A stretch of 64,000 nucleotides of DNA from Dehalococcoidia bacterium (GTDB lineage Bacteria; Chloroflexota; Dehalococcoidia; Lucifugimonadales; UBA3495): positions 75,576-139,575 of the forward strand of contig DAOUHZ010000147.1 of assembly GCA_034428455.1 (NCBI GenBank). The letters are read 5' to 3'. Below are positions 9,404 to 48,502 of this stretch, one piece after another. Each line of letters opens with the position of its first letter. Within the stretch, counting starts at the first letter, position 1. The notes beneath the pieces are model-generated. The model did no database searches. It was not told the origin of the DNA and worked only from the letters and a program-made list of their open reading frames with translations. A program made the translations under genes and the position numbers.

Positions 9404-9439
9404 TCCGTTGCATTGCGCCCGTAACTTCCCGTTATCAAA

Positions 9440-9469
9440 GAAGGGCGCCGCTCAATGGCGGTGCCCTTC
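9440..9469. terminator. GC-rich hairpin between convergent genes (aminotransferase and hicA)
   Basis: GAAGGGCGCCGC (9440-9451) pairs with GCGGTGCCCTTC (9458-9469) with one G-U position and a 6-nt loop. The minus-strand side is followed by CUUUGAUAA. The U-tract is weak. Confidence 0.35.
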
Positions 9470-9490
9470 TCCGTCGGCATGGTTGGCCCT

Positions 9491-9706
9491 TTACTCGGCA
9501 TCAATCAATCCTTTCAAAGCCACGCGACCGATGCCGGTTTGCTTCACGCTGAGGATGGCTTCCAGCGTGGTATCTGGTAAAGGAGTTGATTTGTCCGGAA
9601 TGACGGTAGAACGCCTGAGGTTCTCCCCCGGGAATCTCTTGTAGTAAAGGATCCCATGAGTGCGCCGACCGCCGCTTGTCCAACCGTCGCGCTCAAGCAG
9701 GCGCAT
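9491..9706 (-). CDS. hicA: HicA-family mRNA interferase toxin
   Basis: MRLLERDGW..RRTHGILYYKR..TVIPDKSTPLPDTTLEAIL matches the HicA/YcfA pattern (LEKxGW..GSH...P.H..K.L..GTL..IL). Its ATG shares one nucleotide with the hicB stop (TGATG). Confidence 0.65.
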   Translation of the reverse strand: MRLLERDGWTSGGRRTHGILYYKRFPGENLRRSTVIPDKSTPLPDTTLEAILSVKQTGIGRVALKGLIDAE

Positions 9707-10041
9707 CAGTTCGCGCCCTGAAATGTTCCTACGACGGCAAACCCAGACTGCCGGGGCAAAACGACCGGGGTTATCGTCACATGATATAGCGCCAGGTATT
9801 CGCGGATGTCCGAGAGCCGTTCCATCCCGTTCAGCTGCAACTCTACCGCTTCCCGCAACTCGATTTTCATCTGACCAAAAGTGTCAGCGTAAGCAGATGT
9901 TCCCAACTCTTCGCAGACGCCGACCCACTGCCCGGATTCCTGGCAATAGTACAAAGTCAGGTTGATGGTGTAATCGGGCGCGCCCGACTCATCCCGGTGA
10001 ATGACTTGACCTGTTTCCGTCGTCGATATCGTGTCAGACAT
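9706..10041 (-). CDS. hicB: HicB-like antitoxin
   Basis: ATG 10041 lies 7 nt after GGAGG. YTINLTLYYCQESGQWVGVCEELGTSAYADTFGQMKIELREAVELQL fits the HicB/UPF0150 N-terminal fold pattern. The gene is directly coupled to hicA. Confidence 0.55.
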   Translation of the reverse strand: MSDTISTTETGQVIHRDESGAPDYTINLTLYYCQESGQWVGVCEELGTSAYADTFGQMKIELREAVELQLNGMERLSDIREYLALYHVTITPVVLPRQSGFAVVGTFQGAN

Positions 10042-10083
10042 TGCACTGCCTCCAATCTGTGGCGCGGCTATACTCCAACGCAA

Positions 10084-10857
10084 TCAGGTCACTTTTACTA
10101 TATCTCCAACTCGAACCACGCCGGGCTTCTCCACGATGCCGTAGACACCAAAGTACGCTGCCAGCGCGTTTGGCCGGTAGCTGAGGATCGATCGCACCGC
10201 CTCGGCATCGGTTTCGCCGGTGACTGGGTCCTGGTCAACGATGGCGCAGCGCGGGTCCGGCGCCAGTATGCGCACCACGGCGTCGCCGATTGAGATGGTG
10301 CGATTCATCCAGCCGTCTTCCTCGTGCGCTTCGCATCCGTCCAGCAGCAACGTTGGACGGAACCGGTCGGTGGCAAGGCATTCGTCATCCGTGAGTCCCA
10401 TCCGGCCCGAAAGGTGTTCGACCGACGCTCGGGAAAGAACCGAGACCGGAAACTCGTCGAAAACCTGGCACGGGAGATCGGACATCATCAGCAGGGCCGG
10501 CTGGCCGCAGAACTCGCTGATGGCCGGCATCCAGCCGCCCTTCAACGGATGTGCTCTAACCCGCCGGCCCCAGATGATCGTCCATACCGGATTGTCCAGC
10601 TGAGGCTGGCCTTCCAGGGTTCGTCCGTCGGGAAAGGTGATCCTCAATTGCCCGGTGTCACCGTCCCACGACGTGACCAGTTGCGCCAGCCTTCCCACCT
10701 GGCGACGGCTCAGTAGCCTCCCTTGGCTGTTGACCAGGTAGAACCGACGGTCGTCGACGATGCCGCCCAGATCCAATCTGGCCTCGGTCAACGGCACCAG
10801 GGCCATGGACTTGACCGGCGCGATATTGATTTCAGCAACGGTAATCACGGCCCTCAC
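10084..10857 (-). CDS. MOSC domain-containing protein (YcbX-like, with N-terminal beta-barrel)
   Basis: INIAPVKSMALVPL..DDRRFYLV matches the MOSC_N pattern, and the C-terminal ..RCAIVDQDPVTGE.. carries the conserved MOSC cysteine. Its GTG start overlaps the upstream gene's stop (GTGA). Confidence 0.8.
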   Translation of the reverse strand: MRAVITVAEINIAPVKSMALVPLTEARLDLGGIVDDRRFYLVNSQGRLLSRRQVGRLAQLVTSWDGDTGQLRITFPDGRTLEGQPQLDNPVWTIIWGRRVRAHPLKGGWMPAISEFCGQPALLMMSDLPCQVFDEFPVSVLSRASVEHLSGRMGLTDDECLATDRFRPTLLLDGCEAHEEDGWMNRTISIGDAVVRILAPDPRCAIVDQDPVTGETDAEAVRSILSYRPNALAAYFGVYGIVEKPGVVRVGDIVKVT

Positions 10858-12311
10858 TCCAAAGATAGAAACTCGTCGACCATGTTCCGCGCGTCGGTGC
10901 GGTCATAAATCTGGTAGAGCAGCGCGGCGTTGCGGGCCGAATCACCGCCGAAATAACGCTCGTACAGCGTCTGCCGCCCGCCGAAAGCGCTGCACGACAC
11001 GTCCCACGCCAGCCGGAACAGGCGGATGCGCTCCTCGGCGGTGGCCGTATCGGTGTCCAGATAACGGTGGATGTCCTCGGCCAGCGGCCCGTTCAGGTCC
11101 GCCTCGGCGGGCAGGGCCATGAGGCTGCTGGAGCCCAGCAGGTGCAGGATTTCCGCCATGCGAGGATACATGGTAATCATCTGCTTCCGCGCCACCAGCA
11201 GCGGCCGGTAGTCAGGGCAGAATATTCCCCACTCGTCGGTGGATGCCTGGGCTTCGGAGGCCGCCAACAACGCCTTGGTGATCTCCAGGTTCTCGATCAG
11301 CTCGGCAACCAGGTGCTGGGTTTGCGGCAGGTCACCCGACCCCAGCGTTTCCACCATCAGCGACGCCAGCCCCAGCATGAACTCGCACTTGACCACGTTC
11401 TTGGTGACCACCTGGTGCCCGGTATGCGCGTTGCGGTTGGTGCGCTCGCCCCACTGGTTGCAAAGAGCGACGTCGTTGTAAAGGAACACCCGCTCCCAGG
11501 GAACCAGCACGTCATCAAAGAATACGATGGCATCCATCTCCTCGAACCGGCTGCCGGCCGGGTGATCGAAGTGCGACCGGCCCAAGTCCACGGTGTCGCG
11601 GCATTGGAATTTCAGGCCCGGGGTCTCACAGGGGATGGCGAACCCAAAAGCGTACTTCCCCTCTTCGCCCACCGGCACCCGGCGCGTGCGGGCCGGATAC
11701 ACCGCAATCTCGTCCGACAGCGGCCCTAGCGTCGCCAGCACCCTTGCGCCGCGAACGACGATGCCAGCGTCGGTCTCCTTGACCACCGACAGGGCCACCT
11801 CGGTTCGGTCGTCAAATGGTGTCTGCCCCACGGAGCGGCTGCGCTGGAGGTTGACCAGCGTATGGGTCATGACAATATCGTTTTCGCGGATGTACTCGTA
11901 GTAGTCGAGGATGTTCTGCTTGAACTCCGGGCGGTTCTGACCGCAGTAATCGGCCGCGGCCGCCATGGACATCACCGCCACGTTCAGGAAGTCGGGCGTG
12001 CGCCCCATCATCCCGCACGAAGCCAGGGCCCAGTTGGACATCATCTTCCTGCGTTTGGCCAGATCGTCCGCGTTGCGCGGCATGATGAAGGACAGCCCGA
12101 CCGGATCGCCGGTGGAGGGCGATTGGTAAACCATGTCGCCGCGCACGGCCGGATCGTGCTGCATGTCCAGCAGCCCGGCCACGGTGCGCAGTCCGCCGGC
12201 GAAAGCGGGATGGGCCGTCACGTCCTTCACCCGTTGTCCGCCGATATACACCTCCGCGGCGCGTTCACGTATTCCGTCGATGTATTGGGCTCCGGTGCGC
12301 GCCGGCATCAC
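10854..12311 (-). CDS. 4-hydroxyphenylacetate 3-monooxygenase oxygenase-component family protein (HpaB-like)
   Basis: 485 aa. N-terminal ARTGAQYIDGIRE..VYIGGQRVKDVTAHPAF and the overall length match the HpaB / 4-hydroxybutyryl-CoA dehydratase superfamily. Confidence 0.8.
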   Translation of the reverse strand: MMPARTGAQYIDGIRERAAEVYIGGQRVKDVTAHPAFAGGLRTVAGLLDMQHDPAVRGDMVYQSPSTGDPVGLSFIMPRNADDLAKRRKMMSNWALASCGMMGRTPDFLNVAVMSMAAAADYCGQNRPEFKQNILDYYEYIRENDIVMTHTLVNLQRSRSVGQTPFDDRTEVALSVVKETDAGIVVRGARVLATLGPLSDEIAVYPARTRRVPVGEEGKYAFGFAIPCETPGLKFQCRDTVDLGRSHFDHPAGSRFEEMDAIVFFDDVLVPWERVFLYNDVALCNQWGERTNRNAHTGHQVVTKNVVKCEFMLGLASLMVETLGSGDLPQTQHLVAELIENLEITKALLAASEAQASTDEWGIFCPDYRPLLVARKQMITMYPRMAEILHLLGSSSLMALPAEADLNGPLAEDIHRYLDTDTATAEERIRLFRLAWDVSCSAFGGRQTLYERYFGGDSARNAALLYQIYDRTDARNMVDEFLSLE

Positions 12312-12381
12312 CTGCCTCCGTTCCGCCTCTCATGCGCACCCAGTTTCCTCAAACCTGTGATGGCGGGGAGCGAAGCGACGC

Positions 12382-12428
12382 GGCAATCCCGTTGGTGTAG
12401 CGACGATCCTGGCCCCAACGAGATTGCC
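12382..12428. promoter_or_regulatory. 14-nt inverted repeat (candidate operator) in a divergent intergenic region
   Basis: GGCAATCCCGTTGG (12382-12395) and CCAACGAGATTGCC (12415-12428) are reverse complements with one mismatch, separated by 19 nt. They lie between the HpaB-like gene (minus) and the hydrolase gene (plus). Confidence 0.3.
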
Positions 12429-12478
12429 ACGCTACGCTCGCAATGACGAACTGGGTACGCGTGAGCGTTCCGCCTGTG

Positions 12479-12507
12479 TTGCTAGTGCCGCAAGGGTATG
12501 GTATACG
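12479..12507 (+). promoter_or_regulatory. sigma70-type promoter for the alpha/beta hydrolase gene
   Basis: TTGCTA (12479-12484), a 17-nt spacer, then TATACG (12502-12507). RBS GGGAGA and GTG 12536 follow. Confidence 0.4.
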
Positions 12508-12535
12508 AGCGAAAACCGCAATTGGGAGACGCATC

Positions 12536-13351
12536 GTGCCCACTATCCAGCGTGGAGACGCTCGACTGCACTATTATCTGGACGACTTCACCGACCCCTG
12601 GCGGTCGGCTCCCGAAGCTATCGTGCTGCAGCACGGCTTCTCCCGCAGCGGCAAGTTCTGGTACAACTGGCCTCCCCTGCTGAGCCGCGAGTATCGTGTC
12701 ATCCGACCCGACATGCGGGGCATGGGCCAGTCGACCATTGACCCGTCCCGCTACCAGCCCACCCTGGACACCCTCATGGGCGACCTGCTGGCCATCCTCG
12801 ACGACGCCGGCGTGGATCGAGCAGTGTACGTCGGCGAGTCCTTCGGCGGCATAATGGGCATGCAGTTCGCCCACGACTACCCGGACCGCTGCCGCGCGCT
12901 GGTGTTGTGCAACTCACCGTGCCGTCTGACCCGCCGTGAGAACCAGACCCCGGGCGGAAGCTGGCTGGCGACCATGGAGCAGGGTGGCATCGGCGCGTGG
13001 AGCGCAGCAACCATCAACTTCCGTCTGGACATGCGCCATGCTGCGGAGGGCCTCAAGGACTGGTACATCGCCGAGATGGACAAGACGCCGGGGGACATCG
13101 GCCAGGCCCTCCACACCTATCTGGACAGCCTCGACTTCGGGCCGCATCTGAAGGACATCACCGTGCCCACGCTGCTGCTCACCGGCGACGAATCCCTGAC
13201 CACCAGCATGGAGCAGCAGGAATTCATGGCCTCCGAAATCCCCAACAGTCGCCTGGACGTGTGGCCCGGCCTGGGCCACGGCGTCAACGTCATCTATCCC
13301 GAATGGTGCGTGCAGCACGTGCGGAATTTCCTCGGCGAGCGCGGAGCCTGA
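12536..13351 (+). CDS. alpha/beta hydrolase fold protein
   Basis: Nucleophile elbow VGESFGG, with HGF.. upstream and a GLGHGVN His region near the C-terminus. GTG 12536 is chosen because of the upstream promoter and RBS. The track ORF starts at 12443. Confidence 0.8.
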   Translation: MPTIQRGDARLHYYLDDFTDPWRSAPEAIVLQHGFSRSGKFWYNWPPLLSREYRVIRPDMRGMGQSTIDPSRYQPTLDTLMGDLLAILDDAGVDRAVYVGESFGGIMGMQFAHDYPDRCRALVLCNSPCRLTRRENQTPGGSWLATMEQGGIGAWSAATINFRLDMRHAAEGLKDWYIAEMDKTPGDIGQALHTYLDSLDFGPHLKDITVPTLLLTGDESLTTSMEQQEFMASEIPNSRLDVWPGLGHGVNVIYPEWCVQHVRNFLGERGA

Positions 13352-35107: not shown

Positions 35108-35566
35108 ATGGCTATGAATTCCAGTGGCGTTTCCCACATCGCCGTTTGCGTCCGCGATCTGGACGAATCCCTCAAATTCTACCGTGACATCCTGGGAATG
35201 ACCGTAACCGTAGACCGGGTTCAGGACACTTCCACCGGCGGCCTGCCCCACGTCTACGCCCACGACCGTTCCACCCGCCGCCAGGCCATCCTGTCCTACG
35301 GCGACGGGGCCGTTCCCACGCTGGTGATGACCAGTCACCCGGGTGATGACTCCGATGGCTCGGCCATCAAGCTTGACCAGGTGGGCATCAGCCACATCTC
35401 CTTTTCCGTGTCCGATGTCAAAGCTCTCGCCGACGAATTGATCGCTGCCGGCGTGGATCTGGCCGGCCCCATGGACGGCTTCACCAACGCCAACGGAGAG
35501 GTCTCCAGCATCTTCGTGTACGACCCGGACGGCATCCTGGTGCAGTTCGACAGCGGCGGAGGCTGA
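35108..35566 (+). CDS. VOC (glyoxalase/bleomycin-resistance/dioxygenase) family protein
   Basis: GVSHIAVCVRDLDESLKFYRDILGM.. and ..GISHISFSV..VYDPDGILVQF are the paired beta-alpha-beta-beta-beta VOC modules. Confidence 0.75.
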   Translation: MAMNSSGVSHIAVCVRDLDESLKFYRDILGMTVTVDRVQDTSTGGLPHVYAHDRSTRRQAILSYGDGAVPTLVMTSHPGDDSDGSAIKLDQVGISHISFSVSDVKALADELIAAGVDLAGPMDGFTNANGEVSSIFVYDPDGILVQFDSGGG

Positions 35567-35617
35567 TCCTCCTTCGGCCAACGTCAACCGCAACACCACA
35601 ACCCAGGAGGTTACGCC

Positions 35618-36070
35618 ATGCCGATGCACGCCACCGGGGTATCCCACATCGCCATCTGTGTCAGGGACCTCGACGAGTCCTTGAAGTTCTATTGTGAGGC
35701 CCTGGGCATGTCCATCGTCAGCGACGTCATCCAGGACACCACCACGGGCGGGCTGCCCCATGTCTACGCCCACAGCCGGGCCACCCGACGCCAGGTTCGC
35801 CTCGCCTACGCCGATGGAGCCAAACCAACCCTGACCATGACCAGCCATCCCGGCGAAGATCCCGACGGCACGCCCATCAAGTTGGACCAGGTCGGCATCA
35901 GCCATATCTCGTTCTCGGTGCCAGATCCCAAAGCCCTCGCCGAAAACCTGGCGGGCCAGGGTGTCCCCCTGGCCGCTCCGATGGACGTGTGGACCAACGC
36001 TGAAGGCCGGGTGAGCAGCTTCTACGTCTACGACCCGGACGGCATCCTGGTGCAGTTCGACGCCGGCTGA
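35618..36070 (+). CDS. VOC family protein (tandem paralogue of 35108-35566)
   Basis: It is collinear with the preceding ORF and highly similar to it (GVSHIAICVRDLDESLKFYCEALGM.., VYDPDGILVQFD). Confidence 0.75.
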   Translation: MPMHATGVSHIAICVRDLDESLKFYCEALGMSIVSDVIQDTTTGGLPHVYAHSRATRRQVRLAYADGAKPTLTMTSHPGEDPDGTPIKLDQVGISHISFSVPDPKALAENLAGQGVPLAAPMDVWTNAEGRVSSFYVYDPDGILVQFDAG

Positions 36071-36613: not shown

Positions 36614-36622
36614 AGGGTGACC

Positions 36623-37171
36623 ATGTCCCACCATTACGACCAACACGACCACGAAAAGCTCCTACGCTGGAAGAACGATCTCGCCGCCGCGCCCATCGAG
36701 TCCAATGGCTTCCCGGCCATGGCCTTGTTCCTGGTCAAGCCGAACGCCACCGGTTCCCACGACATCTTCCGCAGGTACCGCGCCGAGTTCGAAAAGCGGG
36801 ACGCCAGCTTTGCCCACCTGGTGGTCTTCGGCATGCATGGCGTCTCCGCCACGGTGCGCGGCCTGCTGGACCAGGCTGGGCTTTCCGAGGACGACCTGCC
36901 AGTGATGATGCTTGCTCCCGCTGACGATCCCTGCGCCGTTACGGCGGTCCGGCTCCCGCCCGGCGAGAGCATCGAGGGCGCGGACGACCCCAACGGCGGC
37001 GGGACCTGCGACTATCTTGCCGCCTGGCAGGATGTCCTGGACCGCATCAGCATCACCAGGCCCGGCCGACCCCTCCGGCTCATGGGCGTCCAGGGCCAGA
37101 AACTGAACGGCGTGGACCTGCGCGAGTTGGCGGGCGCAGCGCTGGAGGCTGCGACAGGCACTTACAGCTAG
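36623..37171 (+). CDS. hypothetical protein
   Basis: ATG 36623 follows AGAGGG. The ORF begins about 10 nt after the upstream stop. No motif recognised. Confidence 0.45.
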   Translation: MSHHYDQHDHEKLLRWKNDLAAAPIESNGFPAMALFLVKPNATGSHDIFRRYRAEFEKRDASFAHLVVFGMHGVSATVRGLLDQAGLSEDDLPVMMLAPADDPCAVTAVRLPPGESIEGADDPNGGGTCDYLAAWQDVLDRISITRPGRPLRLMGVQGQKLNGVDLRELAGAALEAATGTYS

Positions 37172-37254: not shown

Positions 37255-37761
37255 ATGTCCCTTGCGCAAGCCAATCGCCACACCGACCTCAGCCGTCGCC
37301 TGATGGAGCAGGCCAATTACGAACTGCATACCATGGGCGACCGGGTGCAGGCTTCGGACAAAGCTTCCGGCGCCGTGGCCCAGGCGGTGAAAGCAATCGC
37401 CGAGGACCGCAACTGGCGGCACCGCTCGCACAACTTGCGCCGGGATATTGTCGGCCTGCTGGCCGATGAGTTCCAGCAACCGCAAATCAGGCATTTGCAG
37501 GCCATCGCCGACCAGTTGCACGACAACTACTATGAGGACTGGTTAGGCGAAGCGCTGGTAACGGATCTGGTTGCCGACGTCAATTCGCTGATACCCCTCT
37601 TGTGGGAAGCGCGGGAACGGGGAGCGAACCAGGATTTCATCCCGACTCCCTTGCAGCAGAGGACCATCGACCGCCTCCTCATACCGGAAGAAGAAGCCCT
37701 TGCCGACGAAAGCATAGACTTGCCCCCGCCCATGCCTCCATTCAGGCCCCCGGCGGGCTGA
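37255..37761 (+). CDS. PaREP1-like (HEPN-like helical) small protein, copy A
   Basis: QASDKASGAVAQAVKAIAEDRNWRHRSH....LHDNYYED resembles the PaREP1 family pattern (QASEK.(W/Y).A....KA.A......W....H ... LH..FYE). It is paralogous over its full length to 42347-42883. Confidence 0.5.
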   Translation: MSLAQANRHTDLSRRLMEQANYELHTMGDRVQASDKASGAVAQAVKAIAEDRNWRHRSHNLRRDIVGLLADEFQQPQIRHLQAIADQLHDNYYEDWLGEALVTDLVADVNSLIPLLWEARERGANQDFIPTPLQQRTIDRLLIPEEEALADESIDLPPPMPPFRPPAG

Positions 37762-37809
37762 ACGGCTATCAGGGTTGGTCAGATTGAACGGAAGCCCGAC
37801 GGCGCCAGT

Positions 37810-40533
37810 TTGACTACGATGACCCTTATGATGCCGCTGTTGCCGACAATAACGCCGCGTGATTTCATCGCCAAATGGGATGGCGCAGATTTTGGCGAAA
37901 AGCAGGCCGCGCAGGAGATGTTCCTCGACATCTGCGGGATGGTAGGACACCCTACCCCGGTCGCCCACGGCGATTCGGAAGTCTTCACCTTCGAAAAGCG
38001 CGTGCCAGGCGGGTTCGCCGATGCTTATCTGGAAGGCCATTTCGTCTGGGAATTCAAAGGACGGGACCGTCAGCTGAGCGAGGCCGTGGTCCAGGCGGTG
38101 GGTTACGCCCGCCACCTCAAAAATCCACCGCTCATCGTGGCCTCGTCCTTCGAAACCGTACGCATTGAAACCAACTTCCCGGGAATGGAACTGGTACAGC
38201 ACAATATCGCGCTGTCCGAACTGGCCGAACCGGCTAACCTGGAATTGCTGCACAACGTTTTCCACAATCCGGACGCATTGCGACCCCAACGCAGTGTCGC
38301 CGCCGTCACGCAAGACACCGCTCACTTGTTCAGCCAAATCGTCGCCGATATGGAAGGATATACGGCCGACCCGGAACTGCTGGCCCGTTACCTGAATCGA
38401 ATCGTTTTCTGCCTTTACGCGGAGGATGCGGGCTTGTTGCCCGAGGACATACTTTCCGACATCCTGCATGTCAACCGGCGGCGTCCCGATTTGTCCAACC
38501 GGGCTTTGGCTAACCTCTTTGACCAGATGGCCGCGGGCGGGTTATTCGGCACGTACGAAATCACCCCCTTCAACGGCGACCTGTTCCGGGGCGACACGCC
38601 GGTAGAACTCAGCAGCGGTGCGATGCAGCGTCTCGGCGAGGCGGTCGTCGCCAACTGGCGCAGCATCGAGCCGTCCATATTTGGGACGCTGTTCGAGCGG
38701 GCGCTGGACGCATCCAAGCGGGCGCAGACGGGCGCGCATTACACCGGCGCGGAGGACATCGAGCTGGTGGTGGAGCCGGTGGTGATGACTCCGCTGCGCC
38801 GGGAGTGGGACGCCGCCCGGCAGGAAATCGACCTCCTGCTGGAGGAAGACAATGCCGACGCGGCGCGGGAACGGCTGAAGGCGTTTCGCCGGCGGCTGGA
38901 CTCGGTCACGGTGCTGGACCCGGCCTGCGGCAGCGGCAACTTCCTGTACATCGCCCTGCGGTCGCTGCTGGACCTGGAGCTGGCGGTCATTGACTTTGCC
39001 GCCGCCCGGGGTTGGCCTGGGCTGACGCCCAAGGTGCAGCCCAACCAAATGCTGGGATTGGAAATCAACCACTACGCGGCGGAACTGGCGCGCACCGCCC
39101 TGTGGATCGGCTACATCCAGTGGCACGAGGCCAACGGGTTTCCCTATACTCAGCGTCCCATCCTGACGCCGCTGGACACGATACGGCAGACCGACGCCAT
39201 CCTGGACCTGAGCGACCCCGACAACCCGGCGGAACCGGAATGGCCGGCGGCGGAGTTTATCGTGGGAAACCCGCCGTTTTTGGGCGGCAAACTGCTCCGC
39301 ACCGGCTTGAGCGACGAGTACGTGGACGCGCTGTTTCGGCAATACGACGGCAGGGTGCCGGCCGAGGCGGACCTGGTGTGCTACTGGTTCGATAAAGCGC
39401 AGCAAGCGGTTGAGGCTGGGGCGGTCAAACGGGCGGGCCTGCTGGCGACGCAGGGGATAAGGGGCGGCGCAAACCGGCGCGTGTTGCAGCGCATCAAGGA
39501 AACCGGCGACATCTTCATGGCGTGGTCGGATCACCCATGGGTGCTGGAAGGCGCGGCGGTGCACATCTCCATTGTCGGTTTCGACGACGGTTCCGAGACC
39601 GAGCGCGAACTGGACGGGCAGCCGGCTCCAGCTATCAACGCCAACCTGACGGCCGGGGTTGACCTGACGGCGGCGAAACGCCTGGGAGAAAACCTTGGCA
39701 TCGCGTTCATGGGCGACACCAAGGGCGGCCCGTTCGACATTTCCGGCGGACTGGCGCAAGAAATGCTCGCCAGTCCCAACCCGCATGGCAAAAGCAATGA
39801 GGGGGTGCTCAGGCCGTGGGTCAATGGGCGCGACATTACGGACCGTTCCCGAGGCATGTGGATCATCGACTTTGTTGATTTGTCCTTAGACCAAGCGGTC
39901 CTGTACGAAACACCTTTTGAGTACGTGGATGCTCATGTAAGGCCGCAACGAGAGCGCTCTCGATCAACGATTTCAAGCTGGTGGTTGCACGAACGTCCCC
40001 GACCTGATATGAGGCAGGCTCTGGAAAGCATTGACAGGTATATCGTGACTCCAAGAGTGTCCAAGCACAGATTGTTTGCCTGGATAGCGGGCAAAGTATT
40101 GGCGGACAGCGCCACGATTGCGCTTGCAAGAGACGACGACTACACTTTCGGCGTGTTGCACTCGCGCTTTCACGAGCTTTGGGCTTTGGCGATGGGAACG
40201 CAGTTGGAAACGCGGCCACGCTACACACCGACAACGTGCTTTGAGACGTTTCCGTTTCCGCGTCCGACGGAGGAGCAGCGGGAGGCCATCGGCGCGGCCG
40301 CGGCGGAGTTGAACCGGCTGCGGGAGGGCTGGCTGAATCCGGATGGGATCAGCGCGACGGAGCTGCGGAGGCGGACGCTGACGAACCTGTACAACCAGCG
40401 GCCGACGTGGCTGGACAACATCCACGCCCGTCTCGACGCGGCGGTGGCCGACGCCTACGGGTGGCCGGCGGACCTGGCGGAGGGGGAGATCCTGGAGCGT
40501 CTGCTGGCGCTGAACTTGGAGAGGGCGGGGTAA
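37810..40533 (+). CDS. MmeI-family Type IIL/IIG single-chain restriction endonuclease / N6-adenine DNA methyltransferase
   Basis: 907 aa. The N-terminal region is collinear with MmeI (FIAKW..EKQAAQEMFLDICGMVG..FADAYLEGHFVWEFKGRD, a D-x12-E-x-K nuclease motif). SAM motif I VLDPACGSGNFLY and motif IV FIVGNPPFLGG are present. The long C-terminal region carries WW.HERPR, KHRLF and FETFPFP, typical of this family. Confidence 0.8.
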   Translation: MTTMTLMMPLLPTITPRDFIAKWDGADFGEKQAAQEMFLDICGMVGHPTPVAHGDSEVFTFEKRVPGGFADAYLEGHFVWEFKGRDRQLSEAVVQAVGYARHLKNPPLIVASSFETVRIETNFPGMELVQHNIALSELAEPANLELLHNVFHNPDALRPQRSVAAVTQDTAHLFSQIVADMEGYTADPELLARYLNRIVFCLYAEDAGLLPEDILSDILHVNRRRPDLSNRALANLFDQMAAGGLFGTYEITPFNGDLFRGDTPVELSSGAMQRLGEAVVANWRSIEPSIFGTLFERALDASKRAQTGAHYTGAEDIELVVEPVVMTPLRREWDAARQEIDLLLEEDNADAARERLKAFRRRLDSVTVLDPACGSGNFLYIALRSLLDLELAVIDFAAARGWPGLTPKVQPNQMLGLEINHYAAELARTALWIGYIQWHEANGFPYTQRPILTPLDTIRQTDAILDLSDPDNPAEPEWPAAEFIVGNPPFLGGKLLRTGLSDEYVDALFRQYDGRVPAEADLVCYWFDKAQQAVEAGAVKRAGLLATQGIRGGANRRVLQRIKETGDIFMAWSDHPWVLEGAAVHISIVGFDDGSETERELDGQPAPAINANLTAGVDLTAAKRLGENLGIAFMGDTKGGPFDISGGLAQEMLASPNPHGKSNEGVLRPWVNGRDITDRSRGMWIIDFVDLSLDQAVLYETPFEYVDAHVRPQRERSRSTISSWWLHERPRPDMRQALESIDRYIVTPRVSKHRLFAWIAGKVLADSATIALARDDDYTFGVLHSRFHELWALAMGTQLETRPRYTPTTCFETFPFPRPTEEQREAIGAAAAELNRLREGWLNPDGISATELRRRTLTNLYNQRPTWLDNIHARLDAAVADAYGWPADLAEGEILERLLALNLERAG

Positions 40534-40560: not shown

Positions 40561-41193
40561 TCAAACCCCGGTAAGCCGCAGCGTCTCCTGCAACACCGAT
40601 TCCACATCCTCAGGCCCGGCGACCAGCAGGTGCGGGCGCGGCACCGGTTGGTCGGCGACGGCCATGCGCGAGTACACGTCCCAGGTAGCATCGCTCTGCG
40701 CGGCCTCTCCGACGCCCTTGGCCCGGTCCGTCAGGCGACGGCGCACCAGCTCCGAAGGGGCGGTGAACCGGATTATCGACGGCTCGACACCCACCGCATC
40801 CGCAGATTCATAAAGCGGACGCCGCACTTTCTCGTTCAGATTGGTGGCGTCGAACACCACCGAGTACCCGTCCCGCAGGTAGCCCCGGGTCAGCACGTGC
40901 ATCGCGGAAAACACCCGACGGTGCTCTCTGCGGCTGTAGCTCGGTCGGTCGACCAGCAGCTTGCGGGTCCGGTCGCTGTTTAGCCACACAAACGGCGCGC
41001 GGCGGACCAACTCGCGGGCGAAATGGGACTTGCCGGTACCAGGCAAGCCACAGAGGATCACCAGGCTTGGCGACGCGTGGGTGGTTTTAGGCAACCCTTC
41101 TGCGTACGCTGATCGCAGCCGCTCCAAGTCCGGCGGACGAAGACCCCCCGCCGTCCAGGACTTGCGCGGCGACGGAGACGTTGATCCGGACAC
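40561..41193 (-). CDS. P-loop kinase-like ATPase (AAA_33 / zeta-toxin-like fold)
   Basis: Walker A VILCGLPGTGKSHFAREL and a Walker B-like VVFDATN. The protein is 210 aa. Confidence 0.6.
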   Translation of the reverse strand: MSGSTSPSPRKSWTAGGLRPPDLERLRSAYAEGLPKTTHASPSLVILCGLPGTGKSHFARELVRRAPFVWLNSDRTRKLLVDRPSYSRREHRRVFSAMHVLTRGYLRDGYSVVFDATNLNEKVRRPLYESADAVGVEPSIIRFTAPSELVRRRLTDRAKGVGEAAQSDATWDVYSRMAVADQPVPRPHLLVAGPEDVESVLQETLRLTGV

Positions 41194-42342: not shown

Positions 42343-42349
42343 TGCGCTA
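42339..42349. repeat. 11-bp direct repeat copy 1 (TCATTGCGCTA) at the copy B stop / proC start junction
   Basis: It is identical to 42880-42890. On the minus strand it reads TAG-CGCA-ATG, that is, the stop of the PaREP1-like ORF, 4 nt, then the proC start. Confidence 0.85.
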
Positions 42350-42883
42350 GTCCTCGTTGCCCGCCAAGCCGTGCTTGCGGGAGAATCCCACATCGGAGGT
42401 ATCGCCCATTGCCAATTGTTCGTTCCCGGTGAGGCGGCGCAGCCGTCGCAACTGTGTGTTGCTGCTGATCGTGAACGGACGGGGAGGCATGGCCGTCAGG
42501 TCGATCAATGCCTCCATCACCCGCTCAACTCCGTCGATCATTTCGGACAACTCTTCCGGGCTGCGGTGATTTTCGTAAAAGTTCTCGTGGCCGACGAAGT
42601 ATGCCAACGAAAGAGCATATGCCTGATCAGTGTCGAAGCCGTATTCCAGCACGAGCTGGCTAAGTACTGCGTGAACGTCCTGATGGGACTTATGCCGCCA
42701 GCCGCGTTGTTCGGCGATGGCTTTCACCGGGTGCACCACGGCGCCCCAAGCTTTCTCACCCGCCTGCAAGCGGCTGCCATTAGACAGTTCTTCGCGAGCC
42801 TGGATGATCATACGCAAGCTGATCCGGAGACGGTCTTCGGTACTTTGAACGCCGTGCGCCGGCAAATCCGGTGCGGTGGTCAT
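42347..42883 (-). CDS. PaREP1-like (HEPN-like helical) small protein, copy B
   Basis: QAGEKAWGAVVHPVKAIAEQRGWRHKSH....GHENFYEN has the same motifs as copy A. ATG 42883 lies 4 nt after the pdxA stop, and the ORF's own stop lies 4 nt before the proC ATG. GC is somewhat lower than in the flanking genes. Confidence 0.5.
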   Translation of the reverse strand: MTTAPDLPAHGVQSTEDRLRISLRMIIQAREELSNGSRLQAGEKAWGAVVHPVKAIAEQRGWRHKSHQDVHAVLSQLVLEYGFDTDQAYALSLAYFVGHENFYENHRSPEELSEMIDGVERVMEALIDLTAMPPRPFTISSNTQLRRLRRLTGNEQLAMGDTSDVGFSRKHGLAGNED

Positions 42884-43931: not shown

Positions 43932-44102
43932 TTCACGCCTCATCCGTCAGTGCGATTTGCGCCCGGCCGATTGGCGGCAAATTATAGCACGCGGGCCGCG
44001 CTGAAAAGCCGCTGCTTTTCCGAGGTGGGTTGCCCAGATAAGGCGAACCTCTTAAACTTGCGGCACAAATCCGCTTTTGACTTGGCACTGTCAGGAGGCG
44101 CC

Positions 44103-44639
44103 ATGGCCTCACCAGAAAATTTCGAGCAGGACCGCGGCAAATTGATTGAGGCCGTGATTTACCTGAGCGAGCTGTCCATTGACGACCCCGAGTTTGGCCT
44201 GCCCAAATTGACCAAGATGCTCTATTACGCTGATTGCGAGTCCTATATGGAGTACGGTCAGCCTATCACCGGAACCACTTACCTCCATTTTCCCCACGGC
44301 CCCTATCCGGAGAACTGGTACCAGATAAGGGAACGGATGGAGCAGGATGGCGACGTGGAGGTACTCCACGATACCGCCGCTGGAGGGTATCACAACTACT
44401 GGTTGCTGCCTCTCCGCCCGCCTGACTTGGAACGGCTCACCCTCGAAGACCGCAAGGCGTTGGAGGCGCAAGTGAAGCGTTTTGCCGGCTTCAACGCCGC
44501 GGGCATCGAGCAATACTCCCGCCAGGACATCGGCTGGCGGGCCACTGAAGATGGGCAACCAATCTCATACGAATTGGCTGGCGTCTTCGCTCCAACGCCG
44601 AGCGTGCGCGAATTCCGAGAATCCCGAGTCGCTAGCTAA
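44103..44639 (+). CDS. Panacea-domain (DUF4065, SocA/PanA-like) antitoxin-type protein
   Basis: PKLTKMLYYADCESYMEYGQPITGTTYLHFPHGPYP matches the DUF4065 core (KL.KLLYYA......G.P......A...GPV). ATG 44103 is preceded by AGGAGG. The track ORF starts at 43950. Confidence 0.7.
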   Translation: MASPENFEQDRGKLIEAVIYLSELSIDDPEFGLPKLTKMLYYADCESYMEYGQPITGTTYLHFPHGPYPENWYQIRERMEQDGDVEVLHDTAAGGYHNYWLLPLRPPDLERLTLEDRKALEAQVKRFAGFNAAGIEQYSRQDIGWRATEDGQPISYELAGVFAPTPSVREFRESRVAS

Positions 44640-45027
44640 CTTTCCTCGCTCCCAGCAGCCAAACGGTGACGTCATCTTCTATGATTTCGTAGCGGATTTC
44701 TATCCTACCGTGGCGATTAGCAGCAGAACGGGGAAACCCGATGCGTCTGACGTTATCAGGCTCTCCTGGGATAAGTGCTCCGGTCATGGGATACTCCGAC
44801 AATCGCCTTTTTATGCCTTCAAGCGTAGCAGGATCCGCCATCTGATTAATCCAACCTTCAATGATACCGCTCCGCCAATCCGACTGAAAGGATTCCCGCT
44901 CCGCGACCGAATACCGACCTCGCTGGTGTGGAATCACTACCCCGCATCTCCATTTCGCATCGTTTGACCATCGCCGAAATCCAACAAGCCAGAGCGGATT
45001 ATCATCCGCCCCGGCCCGGTCGGTCAT
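44632..45027 (-). CDS. RelE/ParE-superfamily-like toxin candidate with an N-terminal extension of about 37 aa
   Basis: The C-terminal ..GEPDNVRRIGFP....HGRIEIRYEIIEDDVTVWLLGARK resembles the RelE/ParE core (R.R.G.YRI.Y.I.....V.I..I.HR). ATG 45027 overlaps the nrdJ stop (ATGA). An alternative GTG start is at 44937. This stretch has clearly lower GC. Confidence 0.45.
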   Translation of the reverse strand: MTDRAGADDNPLWLVGFRRWSNDAKWRCGVVIPHQRGRYSVAERESFQSDWRSGIIEGWINQMADPATLEGIKRRLSEYPMTGALIPGEPDNVRRIGFPRSAANRHGRIEIRYEIIEDDVTVWLLGARKVS

Positions 45028-48000
45028 TCGCACTTGTTCCACCCGCACGAATAGCAGCTCAGGCAGCCCTCCTGGTTAACCACGCCTCCATTGCACTCCG
45101 GGCATCGCTGGGAAAAGCCCGTCGGATACATTGGCGCTGGCGTATGACCGTTGATACCGTTCTCCGTGGGCCCCCCGGCCAGGCTCAATTGCACGCCGGC
45201 AGGCGCGCTGTTCAGCGCATCGCCGCCATTGGCGATCTTGTCCAGCACCAGGGCCACCGCGTCGGGGCCGGATCCCACCAGCACGCCATCGTCCCACGCC
45301 GGGCAGCACGTTATCCCACGCAATTGCCGGGTGACTTCGCTGGGATCGATGCCCCCACGCAGCGCCAGCGATACCAGCCGTGAAACTGCCTCCAGCAGCG
45401 CAGCATCGCATCCGCCGGCCTTGCCCATGGCGCCGAACACTTCAAAGGGCATCCCGTTGGAATCCATGTTCACGGTGACGTACATGTTGCCGTGTCCGGT
45501 CCGCACCCGTTCCGTGATGCCGTGGATCTGACGGGGTCGGCGCCGGGGCGCCCGGTGGCCGAGCCCGATGATCTTCACGGCGTCCGGGTCGTCAGCGTCA
45601 GCCGGATTATCGGCTTCGGATGTTTCTCCGCTAGTGCCGGTGCTCAACACCTGCTCAGACTTGCTGCCGTCGCGGTAAACGGTGATCCCTTTGCATCCCA
45701 GGGTGTAGGCGGACCGGTAGGCCTCCGCCACGTCTTCCACTGTCGCCTCGCTGGGGAAGTTGATGGTCTTGGACACCGCGTTGTCCGTGTATTCCTGGAA
45801 GGCCGCCTGCATCCGCACGTGCCACCGGGGATCGATGTCGTGGGACACCCGGAACACGCTCTTGACCCATTCCGGCACGTCCAGGTCCTCCAGCGAGCCG
45901 ACGCTGGCCAACTGCTCCATGAGTTCCGGCGTGTAAAACCCTTCGTGGCGAGCCACCGCTTCCAGGAAGGCGTTCCCCTCCACCAGGCGAGTGTTGTCCA
46001 TCACGTTCCGCACGTAGGACAGGGCGAACAGCGGCTCAATCCCGCTGGATGCCCCGGCGATGATGCTGATCGTTCCCGTTGGCGCAATGGTCACCGGCGC
46101 CGAGTTGCGCATGGGCGAGGAATCCGGGCCCTTGTTGTACGCGCTGTTTTCCCATTCCGGGAAGGGGCCCCGGGACTCGGCAAGTTCGCACGAAGCCCGG
46201 TAAGTCTCTTCCCGGATGAACTTCATCACCTCGCGGGCCAGTTCCAGGGCTTCCTCGCTGTCGTAGGGCACGCCTATCTGGATCAGCAGGTCCGACCATC
46301 CCATGACGCCCAGGCCGATACGGCGCGTCCGCCGGCTCATGTCCGCGATTTCCTGGATCGGATAGTCGTTCATGTCGATCACGCAGTCGAGCATGTGCAC
46401 CGCCGTCGTGATCACTTCGCTCATCCGTTCCCAGTCGACTTCAACGTCGTCCGCCGTGTAGCGAACCATGCGCGTCAGGTTCAGCGAACCCAGGTTGCAG
46501 GATTCGTAGGGCAGCAGCGGCTGCTCTCCGCAGTTGTGGACGTAGAACCCGTTTGCGTCGAACGCGTTTACCCCGGGAACCGCCACGTCGAACACGTCCT
46601 CGTGATTGTCGGCTTCTATCTCGGTGACGCGGGCCATGAAAGACCTATCGTTGTCTGGAGTTTGCGAAAGTTCAAGCCACCGCTCAAAGCCCTCCGGCTT
46701 GACGACGGCGTTGAATCTGTCGAAATGCTCGTTGGCAACTAGTAGCTCCGGGTAACCTTCCCCATACCAAATGCTGGACTTTATAGCCAGTCGCAGCAAC
46801 ATCCGTTGCAAACCCTGCAAGATCGTTTCATCTGCCTCGCGGGGAGCAATGTTGATGCACTTCGGGTTTTTACCAGTGTGCTCCTTGTGGCGAAGGGACA
46901 GCCCCCTGAAAAATCCGATGTAGAACTCCCCGGATGTGCGCTCCAGATCAGGAGTCACATCTGGACACTTCGGGTCGATTTTCAAACACTGTCTGATTTC
47001 GCCGAGAAGCGCCTGCTCTTGAGATGTGGGTTCTTGCGGATCCTTTTTGGCGCGACGCGTGTGAGGGTCGACAATTATGCGATGTGGGTTCTTCATAAAG
47101 AACCTTCCCATCAAGATGCCTTCCTCCTCACCGTATTGACCATGCCATTGAGCAGAGTCGCAATGGGAGTTCAGCCTGACGACATCGCCCTTTTGCAATT
47201 CACCAGCCCTTTGCCATCCTCGGTCAGTCATCACCGGATGGTCGGCGGTGAGGCGAAGGGTGTAGCCTTCTCGGGTGGCAATCTTGATTAAGGCCCGGTG
47301 GCCTGTAGGGAAGAATCCCCGTCCGTCGGTGTTGTGGCCCCGGCCGTCAACCATCGCCTCGAACGGGACACCCACCAGTTCCCTGACTTGACGCGGCCCA
47401 TCCGAGGTTTGCACCCAGGTGTCGGCCGTCACGCAAGGATTGGTCGATTCGATATCCCCCAGCTGCGGGTTGGGATTGTCGCGGTTGATGCGATCCAGGA
47501 ACACGATGCCGGGGTCGCCGGTGCGCCAGGCCAGCTCGGTCATCTGCCGAAACACTTCCCCGGCGTTCAGCTGCCCGTCAACCTGCCCGGTGCGCGGATT
47601 TATAAGATCGTAATCCTCTCCCTTTTCCGCCTTGACCATGAAGTCTTCCGTGACCGCCACCGAGATGTTGAAGTTGCTCAGATGGGTTCCGTCTTCTTTG
47701 GACCTGATGAACCGGAGCACGTCGGGGTGCGTCACGTGCAGGATGCCCATGTTGGCGCCCCGGCGGGTGCCGCCCTGCTTGACCACGTCGGTCGCCGCAT
47801 CGAAAGCGTTGATGAAGCTCACCGGGCCCGACGCCACTCCTCCGGTGGAACCGACGACGTCGCCCTCCGGGCGCAGGCGCGAAAAGGCAAAGCCCGTGCC
47901 GCCGCCGCTCTTATGGATCAGGGCCGTTTCCTTCACCTTGGTGAAGATGGAATCGAGCGAATCCTCCACCGGCAGCACGAAGCACGCCGACAGTTGTTGC

Positions 48001-48359
48001 AGTTCACGCCCGGCGTTCATCAAAGTTGGTGAGTTGGGGAGGAACTCCAGCCGGCGCATCACCCGGTAGAACCGCTCCTCCACCGCGGCGCGCTCCGCTT
48101 CGGTCGCCCCGTATTCCAGCTCCGATTGGGACAGGTTGTGCGCCACCCGGCGGAACATCCCTTCGGGGTCTTCCAGCACGTTCCCTTCCCGGTCCTTGGA
48201 AAGATACCGACGCTGCAGCACGACCCTCGCGTTATCCGTCAGGGTCCCGTTGCGATCGTTGTACTCGCCGGCTATGCCGGCCTCGACCATTGCGTCGCGT
48301 ATGCGCCGCCTCACCGAATCAGCCCTGCCTGCCGGTTCAATTCCCGTAGCCGTTGCCAC
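45024..48359 (-). CDS. nrdJ: adenosylcobalamin-dependent (class II) ribonucleotide reductase, intein-containing
   Basis: NSPTLMNAG, CFVLPVEDS, GGGTGFAFSRLRP and STNP|..intein..|CGEQPL are present, plus a C-terminal Cys-rich zinc ribbon (CPECNGG..CLSCYSCGW). GTG 48359 lies 8 nt after GGGAGG. The track ORF starts at TTG 48383. Confidence 0.9.
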   Translation of the reverse strand: MATATGIEPAGRADSVRRRIRDAMVEAGIAGEYNDRNGTLTDNARVVLQRRYLSKDREGNVLEDPEGMFRRVAHNLSQSELEYGATEAERAAVEERFYRVMRRLEFLPNSPTLMNAGRELQQLSACFVLPVEDSLDSIFTKVKETALIHKSGGGTGFAFSRLRPEGDVVGSTGGVASGPVSFINAFDAATDVVKQGGTRRGANMGILHVTHPDVLRFIRSKEDGTHLSNFNISVAVTEDFMVKAEKGEDYDLINPRTGQVDGQLNAGEVFRQMTELAWRTGDPGIVFLDRINRDNPNPQLGDIESTNPCVTADTWVQTSDGPRQVRELVGVPFEAMVDGRGHNTDGRGFFPTGHRALIKIATREGYTLRLTADHPVMTDRGWQRAGELQKGDVVRLNSHCDSAQWHGQYGEEEGILMGRFFMKNPHRIIVDPHTRRAKKDPQEPTSQEQALLGEIRQCLKIDPKCPDVTPDLERTSGEFYIGFFRGLSLRHKEHTGKNPKCINIAPREADETILQGLQRMLLRLAIKSSIWYGEGYPELLVANEHFDRFNAVVKPEGFERWLELSQTPDNDRSFMARVTEIEADNHEDVFDVAVPGVNAFDANGFYVHNCGEQPLLPYESCNLGSLNLTRMVRYTADDVEVDWERMSEVITTAVHMLDCVIDMNDYPIQEIADMSRRTRRIGLGVMGWSDLLIQIGVPYDSEEALELAREVMKFIREETYRASCELAESRGPFPEWENSAYNKGPDSSPMRNSAPVTIAPTGTISIIAGASSGIEPLFALSYVRNVMDNTRLVEGNAFLEAVARHEGFYTPELMEQLASVGSLEDLDVPEWVKSVFRVSHDIDPRWHVRMQAAFQEYTDNAVSKTINFPSEATVEDVAEAYRSAYTLGCKGITVYRDGSKSEQVLSTGTSGETSEADNPADADDPDAVKIIGLGHRAPRRRPRQIHGITERVRTGHGNMYVTVNMDSNGMPFEVFGAMGKAGGCDAALLEAVSRLVSLALRGGIDPSEVTRQLRGITCCPAWDDGVLVGSGPDAVALVLDKIANGGDALNSAPAGVQLSLAGGPTENGINGHTPAPMYPTGFSQRCPECNGGVVNQEGCLSCYSCGWNKCE
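46533..47435 (-). mobile_element. intein (301 codons) inserted in the NPCGE active-site motif of nrdJ
   Basis: It begins with Cys (CVTADTWV, block A), has block B TLRLTADHP, and ends ..DANGFYVHN followed by the +1 Cys of CGEQPL. The central part (about 46740-47100) is visibly low in GC and carries only degenerate LAGLIDADG-like strings (GILMGRFFMKN, FYIGFFRGLSL). Confidence 0.85.
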
Positions 48360-48502
48360 CGCAAGTACCTCCCGTAAATTCAACTATATTGATCAAACTT
48401 ATGATTAACAGATAAAGAACGACGATTTGCATGGGCGTACCGTGCACCGCTGTAGTCTAAACGATCAACCTTCTCGCGCGCCGGGGTCTATCGAATTGAT
48501 AC

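Follow-up and report, generated by a model that had tools for sequence, protein, structure and literature searches.

We describe a variable defence slot in the genome of a Dehalococcoidia bacterium, occupied there by a restriction-modification (RM) enzyme of the MmeI family and bordered by a gene of the PaREP1 family. The locus lies in a stretch of 64,000 nucleotides (nt), referred to here as the window, which spans positions 75,576-139,575 of the forward strand of contig DAOUHZ010000147.1 (assembly GCA_034428455.1). The PaREP1 gene, PaREP_A (37255..37761, + strand), encodes 168 amino acids (aa), and the RM gene that follows it (37810..40533, +) encodes 907; both open reading frames (ORFs) appear in the ORF listing of the window where they had been placed before. 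The original prediction regarded the pair as a dedicated two-gene defence module. Comparison with related genomes leads us to a different reading, which we consider likely: a variable defence slot at present houses the MmeI-type enzyme, and PaREP_A is a border gene of that slot with a function independent of MmeI. The broader claim, that this is a defence locus, is borne out.

We surveyed the gene neighbourhoods of 80 PaREP loci fetched from species-dereplicated genomes; genes were called by a codon-usage model, and all products were clustered. Orthologues of PaREP_A (84-95% aa identity) are present in loci L001-L015, L022, L083, and L085, while loci L081-L088 were fetched via MmeI-like relatives of the enzyme. 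The orthologues reside in two flank contexts. In context A (the window, L001-L009, L083, and L085), the left flank is an M17 aminopeptidase gene and the right flank is the series kinase-yggT-proC-PaREP_B-pdxA; in context B (L010-L015 and L022), PaREP_A sits between an NAD synthase and an MFS transporter. Related Dehalococcoidia/SAR202-type loci of these two contexts were compared (n=19). The window is without the M17 aminopeptidase gene, which in relatives lies between a 184-aa ORF and PaREP_A, and its PaREP_A directly follows the 184-aa ORF.

What follows PaREP_A changes from locus to locus. Ten loci carry McrB and McrC as cargo (L001, L003, L004, L006, L007, L008, L010, L012, L013, and L022), and an MmeI-like enzyme is found in L005, L009, L083, and L085 in addition to the window. 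The remaining cargoes occur once each: an HNH protein with a C5 methylase in L002, a IIG-like protein of 996 aa in L015, and a TIR-domain protein in L011 (PADLOC candidate PDC-S35, 222 bits). Because the slot of L011 holds a TIR-domain protein, the slot is not limited to restriction enzymes. In L014 the slot is empty and PaREP_A is intact. A specific pairing of PaREP1 with MmeI does not fit this tally, in which the orthologues precede McrBC ten times, an MmeI-like enzyme four times, each of three other cargoes once, and nothing once. McrC is 67-85% identical between contexts A and B, so the arrangement of PaREP_A followed at some distance by McrBC looks ancestral and MmeI looks like one of several replacements. 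As a separate observation, the slot of L011 (8316-11321, - strand) has a TIR protein of CAP12/Pycsar type beside a 667-aa ORF without a PADLOC match.

The flanks are far more stable than the cargo. A P-loop kinase of 210 aa (40561..41193, -; AAA_33/polynucleotide-kinase-like, Pfam AAA_33 89 bits) forms the right flank, outside the cargo, and is 73-89% identical in L001-L004 and L006-L009 whatever the cargo; it is also present in L083 and L085, and L005 ends before this point. The 184-aa ORF on the left (36617..37171, +) is 85-94% identical in L002, L003, and L006-L009, again whatever the cargo, and has no match in Pfam, PADLOC, or NCBIfam. Both genes had been proposed as possible members of the same island; they are conserved flanks instead, kept regardless of cargo. 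Conserved flanks enclosing alternative defence cargo in related genomes are the pattern of a variable hotspot. There is no tRNA gene in the window, the repeats around the cassette are short and at chance level only, and the annotated context-A flanks hold no integrase or transposase. Exchange of cargo would most simply proceed by homologous recombination through the conserved flanks, and this is probably the mechanism.

A familiar counterpart is the immigration control region of E. coli (hsd-mrr-mcrBC), a chromosomal defence hotspot. The two are alike in their conserved flanks, in their alternative restriction or defence cargo, and in the lack of obvious mobile-element hallmarks. They differ in that the window belongs to another phylum, has other flanks, and is bordered on the left by a PaREP1 gene together with a decaying HicAB module.

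This module bears directly on how the adjacency of PaREP_A and MmeI should be read. In 18 of the 19 loci, a small ORF of 75-94 aa (cluster c5) starts about 49 nt after PaREP_A. The c5 variants tested match only HicB_lk_antitox, at 16-25 bits and under the cutoff; a database search returned more than 2,700 homologues, named HicB family antitoxin by NCBI. A c5 paralogue (81% identical) is followed in 10 of 10 places by a 70-aa HicA gene with a 4-nt overlap. A search with this HicA located full-length hicA directly after c5 in L001, L004, L007, L008, and L012 (about 10770-11250) and remnants of it in L002, L010, and L013. Ten loci have kept hicB without hicA, and L014 and the window are without both, no hicB or hicA match being found in the window. 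On comparative sequence evidence, the ancestral order is PaREP_A, hicB, hicA, cargo, with the toxin-antitoxin (TA) module decaying.

The window preserves the scar of this loss. In a DNA alignment with L009, L005, and L003, the 34 nt after the PaREP_A stop codon (37762-37795) are the hicB leader of the relatives, and after about 37795 the window joins directly to the sequence that precedes MmeI in L009, so that the junction occupies 37762..37809 (+). The adjacency of PaREP_A and MmeI in the window is thus secondary, since hicB(A) was cleanly deleted there, and it is not the original feature it was first taken for: hicB, with or without hicA, normally lies between PaREP_A and the cargo. The gap between PaREP_A and MmeI, given as 48 nt, holds for a TTG start of the enzyme and widens to 57 nt if the alternative ATG at 37819 is used.

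The cargo of the window is well defined. All five MmeI domains of Pfam are matched in order by the 907-aa ORF, with 112 bits for MmeI_Mtase, 41 for MmeI_TRD, and 38 for MmeI_hel; MmeI_N (26.6 bits) and MmeI_C (15.9 bits) fall under the Pfam cutoff of 27. PADLOC REase_MTase_IIG scores 874 bits, and residues 18-887 align to residues 14-884 of MmeI in 5HR4 (phmmer, E=7e-52, 180 bits). The parts follow the order of the single-polypeptide MmeI: N-terminal nuclease, helical spacer, methyltransferase, target recognition domain (TRD), and C-terminal domain. In the PD-(D/E)xK nuclease motif (38020..38058, +), D71, E81, and K83 align with the D...E.K of the MmeI segment GFVDLFWPGILLIEMK; the spacing first stated, D-x12, was a miscount for the D-x9 given by the MmeI alignment. 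Both gamma-class N6-adenine methyltransferase motifs are present, namely S-adenosylmethionine-binding motif I (xDPACGSG; here LDPACGSGNF, residues 369-378, 38914..38943, +), aligned to FDPACGCGNF of MmeI, and motif IV (NPPF/Y; here NPPF, residues 487-490, 39268..39279, +), aligned to GNPPF.

These matches in Pfam, PADLOC, and 5HR4 agree with the earlier description of an intact MmeI-type enzyme. By its domains and motifs, the 907-aa product belongs to a known family, the single-chain MmeI-type RM enzymes of Type IIG/IIL, and it probably works autonomously. It has in common with MmeI (Type IIG/IIL, PDB 5HR4) the single-chain architecture, the D-x9-ExK motif, motif I, and NPPF, and the ORF listing likewise contains no separate M or S gene near it. 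It has diverged from MmeI in sequence (180 bits in the phmmer alignment), and its recognition sequence therefore probably differs. Enzymes of the MmeI family cut about 20/18 nt from an asymmetric site, and the host is protected by methylation of one strand only. By analogy with the family, the TRD of the window enzyme would read a short asymmetric site, the NPPF gamma-class N6A methyltransferase would methylate one adenine in it, and the N-terminal D-x9-ExK nuclease would cut unmodified DNA about two helical turns away.

One relative of the enzyme is a mosaic. When the MmeI gene of L009 (10874-13593) is compared with that of the window (37819-40530), identity is 96% over the first ~213 residues but only 65% over the remainder, and the L009 gene changes frame at the junction. 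The pattern points either to recombination within MmeI genes, in the manner of a specificity-module swap, or to a pseudogene.

In several independent contexts, MmeI-like genes are also flanked by a pair of small ORFs (L009 13618-14417, L083 8848-9650, L085 7749-8551, and L081, L082, and L088). One member is about 105-122 aa with a weak DUF5678 match, and the other is about 125-150 aa and is a retropepsin-like aspartyl protease (PF13650, 28.9 bits). A pair of the same type follows McrBC in L006 (14585-15387) and is absent from the window. The pair may be a TA-like or accessory module.

PaREP_A itself is a PaREP1 protein of the HEPN-T clade and the conserved left border of the slot. It matches Pfam PF05942 with 47.1 bits (E=2.7e-12; cutoff 24.4). 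Its paralogue PaREP_B (42347..42883, -) matches with 43.1 bits against the same cutoff, scores 20.8 bits, sub-threshold, against HEPN PF05168, and is 33% identical to PaREP_A (E=6e-16). PADLOC and NCBIfam searches returned no match for either protein. An AlphaFold2 model of PaREP_A, built on 17 homologues, has a predicted local distance difference test (pLDDT) score of 91.8. Its top Foldseek match in the PDB is 2q00_A (TM 0.77, root-mean-square deviation 2.1 A, 24% identity), followed by the HEPN-T structures 2hsb, 1o3u, and 1wol and then by HEPN toxins; the predicted fold is thus a HEPN-type helical bundle nearest to a solved family member. A profile search of PDB sequences also ranked 2jpu/2q00 first, weakly (E=0.065), with GDxVQAxEK and LHxxxxxE aligned. 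Profile search and fold match together bear out the assignment of both small ORFs to PaREP1 and the HEPN fold.

The putative active site is unusual. According to Anantharaman et al. (2013, PMC3710099), HEPN proteins carry their Rx4-6H motif where core helix 3 ends, and the PaREP1/8 family has retained the histidine of that motif without the arginine. PaREP_A has this character. The LHDNYYED block (residues 88-95, 37516..37539, +) contains H89, a family-wide invariant residue that the profile alignment to 2jpu/2q00 pairs with the histidine in archaeal LHVEGFHE. H89 is at the end of model helix 77-94 and residues 83-85 are A, I, and A. It is therefore H89 that corresponds to the canonical histidine, and the arginine of the motif has no counterpart, there being no Arg 4-6 residues before H89 (QAIADQLH). 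The motif that was first proposed, an Rx6H reading of RNWRHRSH, is positionally non-canonical. In the model, RNWRHRSH (residues 52-59) falls within the helix-2/helix-3 insert, where a loop joins helix 30-51 to helix 59-72, and not at the end of core helix 3. It forms part of the family-invariant block EDRNWRHRSH (residues 50-59, 37402..37431, +), which covers the end of helix 2 and the insert loop, and E50, R52, W54, R55, H56, S58, and H59 are invariant in the family alignment. Some HEPN-T proteins have alternative catalytic residues in this same insert (PMC3710099). With that precedent, and with an invariant RNWRHRSH so placed, catalysis by PaREP_A is possible but would be non-canonical. PaREP_A is most likely a dimeric RNA-binding protein or an RNase with a non-canonical site made of H89, the insert residues R52/R55/H56/H59, and E50.

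Beyond the HEPN core extends a tail (residues 113-168) with a proline-rich motif, PPPMPPF (37723..37743, +), in which the columns of P157-P162 and F163 are nearly invariant. The median dN/dS (the ratio of nonsynonymous to synonymous substitution rates) of the orthologues is 0.13, in core and tail alike (tail 0.147), and this purifying selection indicates that PaREP_A is a real, translated, functional protein. We infer that it is vertically inherited under this selection and probably functions independently of MmeI. The tail, with QQRTIxRL ... IDxPPPMPPFxPP over about 55 residues, is common to PaREP subfamilies A-D and under purifying selection, and translation of its proline run would require elongation factor P (EF-P).

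The comparison with PaREP1/PaREP8 proteins as known from archaea (PF05942; 2q00/2jpu, Sulfolobus) places PaREP_A within the family and sets its bacterial branch apart. Profile score, fold, the His without the Arg, and the lack of an adjacent MNT gene are held in common, as is the existence of a multicopy family with tandem arrays. An MNT (NTP_transf_2) gene is adjacent to neither PaREP_A nor PaREP_B in the window, and there is none among the annotated recurrent neighbour clusters; the literature describes PaREP1 without an MNT partner and leaves its antitoxin, if any, open (Makarova et al., PMC3632139). The proteins studied here differ in being bacterial, from Dehalococcoidia/SAR202-type metagenome-assembled genomes (MAGs), several of them from sponges, and not crenarchaeal or thermophilic; each of the 80 loci comes from a MAG assigned to Dehalococcoidia or Chloroflexota, a taxonomic and not a structural distinction. 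They also carry the additional invariant EDRxWRHxSH insert block and, in subfamilies A-D, the 55-residue tail ending in PPPMPPF.

Homologues of PaREP are numerous; their sources are only Dehalococcoidia, SAR202, and Chloroflexota MAGs, several sponge-derived, and none is functionally named. Other subfamilies occupy conserved housekeeping contexts: priA > PaREP > def, class-III aminotransferase > PaREP > nickel superoxide dismutase, and luciferase-like monooxygenase < PaREP (1-5 copies) > carboxyltransferase. The proteins of the priA-def setting (context C) are 70-79% identical to PaREP_A and have no defence gene nearby. PaREP_B is fixed in a similar manner. It lies between pdxA and proC, on their strand, and reaches 43018 if a TTG start is used; the same position is occupied in L001, L002, L004, L006-L009, L083, and L085. 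This paralogue was once offered as a sign of mobility, for which its fixed place in relatives is no evidence. As to copy number, one MAG (genome CBDBCU01, L040-L053) has at least 12 PaREP loci and L057 (10001-12486) holds five copies in tandem, an expansion that mirrors in bacteria the "repetitive family" behaviour of PaREP1 in Pyrobaculum.

A border gene with a function of its own is not the only way to see PaREP_A, and several observations weigh against it. The orthologues adjoin defence cargo in 18 of the 19 loci across two sets of flanks, which could reflect a functional link beyond the common ancestry of a hotspot. In the window, PaREP_A and MmeI share a strand and are separated by 48 nt in which no terminator is predicted, and the two genes may therefore be co-transcribed in this genome; a promoter and terminator scan returned no sigma-70-like promoter and nothing above shuffle expectation, and is uninformative for this phylum. 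In L005 and L083, a second PaREP copy lies immediately upstream of MmeI (36-81 nt). DNA-methylase-type genes stand beside some PaREP copies of other subfamilies (L057, L061, L066, L070, L055, and L041). A family-wide enrichment of defence genes beside PaREP was considered and rejected on a near/far comparison with PADLOC, using one representative per gene cluster, in which 138 clusters within two genes match 48 families and 150 clusters at least six genes away match 164. The test is crude: its units are clusters, it tallies families instead of genes, and generic ATPase matches are among those counted.

The first alternative draws on a logic already in the literature. Linkage of HEPN genes to RM systems was described in 2013, when at least 16 RM-linked HEPN clades were proposed to act in a PrrC-like multi-layer defence (Anantharaman et al., PMC3710099), so the pairing of a HEPN protein with an RM system is not a new concept. 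PaREP_A would be, on this account, a generic second-line HEPN RNase, held inactive by the restriction system of the slot; once a phage neutralises that system, it would be set free to cut RNA and abort the infection. The account suits the near-constant presence of defence cargo after PaREP_A, the shared strand and short gap in the window, and the HEPN fold, whose canonical histidine is invariant, as are Arg and His residues of the insert. Yet the cargoes that would have to hold PaREP_A in check (McrBC, IIG, HNH with M.C5, and the TIR effector) are mechanistically unrelated, which makes one specific inhibitory protein-protein contact unlikely; hicBA normally lies between PaREP_A and the cargo; L014 retains an intact PaREP_A beside an empty slot; the closely related context C proteins have no defence gene nearby; and in the PADLOC comparison the PaREP family as a whole shows no enrichment of defence genes beside it. 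The likeness to PrrC-EcoprrI and to HEPN genes in RM loci extends to a HEPN-fold gene beside a restriction system on the same strand, but here there is no regulatory ABC-ATPase domain of the kind found in PrrC and RloC, no canonical Rx4-6H, and no stable embedding in one RM operon, the neighbour being swapped among five unrelated system types. We regard this alternative as unlikely.

A related proposal, equally improbable in our judgement, frees PaREP_A from any particular partner. PaREP_A-type proteins would be conserved "anchor" HEPN nucleases at the edge of the slot, serving as a system-independent backup, and would be the first PaREP1 members with a definable role. If this were true, they might, for example, cleave RNA once the restriction or TIR system beside them had been overwhelmed; H89 and the invariant RxWRHxSH insert would together form a non-canonical active site, with the PPPMPPF tail serving for sensing or docking.

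That PaREP_A is the toxin of a non-canonical TA pair, neutralised by the HicB-like protein encoded after it, is very improbable. Such a pair would fill the antitoxin gap left for PaREP1 in the literature (PMC3632139), and the regular position of hicB, about 49 nt beyond PaREP_A in 18 of the 19 loci, speaks for it. But the partner of HicB is HicA, since full-length or remnant hicA follows hicB in 8 of these loci and the 81%-identical hicB paralogues precede a canonical 70-aa hicA at all 10 places. In addition, all other PaREP subfamilies are without hicB, and PaREP_A is intact in the window and in L014 although hicB is absent from both. PaREP_A with c5 was accordingly rejected as a new TA pair, c5 being a canonical HicB that HicA, whole or in decay, directly follows. 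That the window has lost c5 was weighed as proof that PaREP_A can dispense with it, and this was tempered: many hicB paralogues of 80-93% identity could act in trans.

The dedicated module of PaREP_A and an MmeI-like enzyme, with which this study began, is scarcely credible and is largely refuted by the comparative data: the direct adjacency in the window and the PaREP copies close upstream of MmeI in L005 and L083 speak for it, but most orthologues are paired with McrBC or other cargo, hicB separates PaREP_A from MmeI in L009 and L085, the window adjacency was made by a hicB deletion, and the MmeI family (PDB 5HR4) is known for enzymes that need no partner. Nor do PaREP and MmeI co-localise across independent contexts; 2 of the 80 PaREP loci carry MmeI, and the association is confined to one syntenic context (the window, L005, L009, L083, and L085), L083 and L085 being context-A loci with PaREP_A and hicB upstream of MmeI. 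MmeI-like relatives number in the thousands, many of them 70-81% identical and in the same kind of MAGs, although a look-up of the exact sequence of the window enzyme matched no contig. Relatives at 71-78% identity occur without an adjacent PaREP in six other contexts (L081, L082, L084, L086, L087, and L088), which argues against dependence of the enzyme on PaREP. In L084 the relative adjoins GmrSD and AbiEii, and L081 and L082 come from genomes that bear McrBC at the PaREP_A slot. Judging from where it is found, the enzyme does not travel with PaREP.

Among the same loci, a paralogous MmeI-like gene in L081, L087, and L088 (about 9400-12700) has a conserved setting near genes for an HK97-type capsid and an S78 prohead protease, as in a prophage remnant or something similar. 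In L081 and L088 the PaREP1 family is represented by a short gene a few kb from the paralogous MmeI-like gene, and L088 also contains an MNT-HEPN fusion.

Other genes of the window deserve brief description. A ribonucleotide reductase of 1119 aa (45024-48383, -) is made up of barrel, all-alpha, and TSCPD domains, the first of which is interrupted by an intein at residues 362-617 (45 bits with Pfam Intein_splicing). Beside it lie a SocA/Panacea-domain antitoxin-like protein (43950-44639, +; PF13274, 50.8 bits), with no obvious toxin partner on the same strand, and a convergent 138-aa ORF (44632-45048, -) that overlaps it by 8 nt and has no family match, PADLOC and NCBIfam included; both genes are conserved in L006, L007, and L009. 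On the left, two tandem glyoxalase-family paralogues (35108-36070, +), about 72% identical by cross-hits, belong to the conserved left flank. Those A1-flank relatives that were examined have the pair too, and L002 and L083 have an extra ORF between the copies.

The locus reveals no new defence system; its significance lies in what it documents about genome organisation and about two protein families. It adds to the MmeI family an enzyme that is probably active, and enzymes of this kind are useful because their specificities can be engineered. It shows that the "archaeal" PaREP1 HEPN family has undergone a large expansion under purifying selection in Dehalococcoidia/SAR202-type bacteria, where its members have a distinctive invariant insert and a proline-rich tail. 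In addition, it documents a chromosomal defence hotspot in uncultured SAR202/Dehalococcoidia-type bacteria, at which McrBC, IIG enzymes, a Type II system, and a TIR effector interchange.

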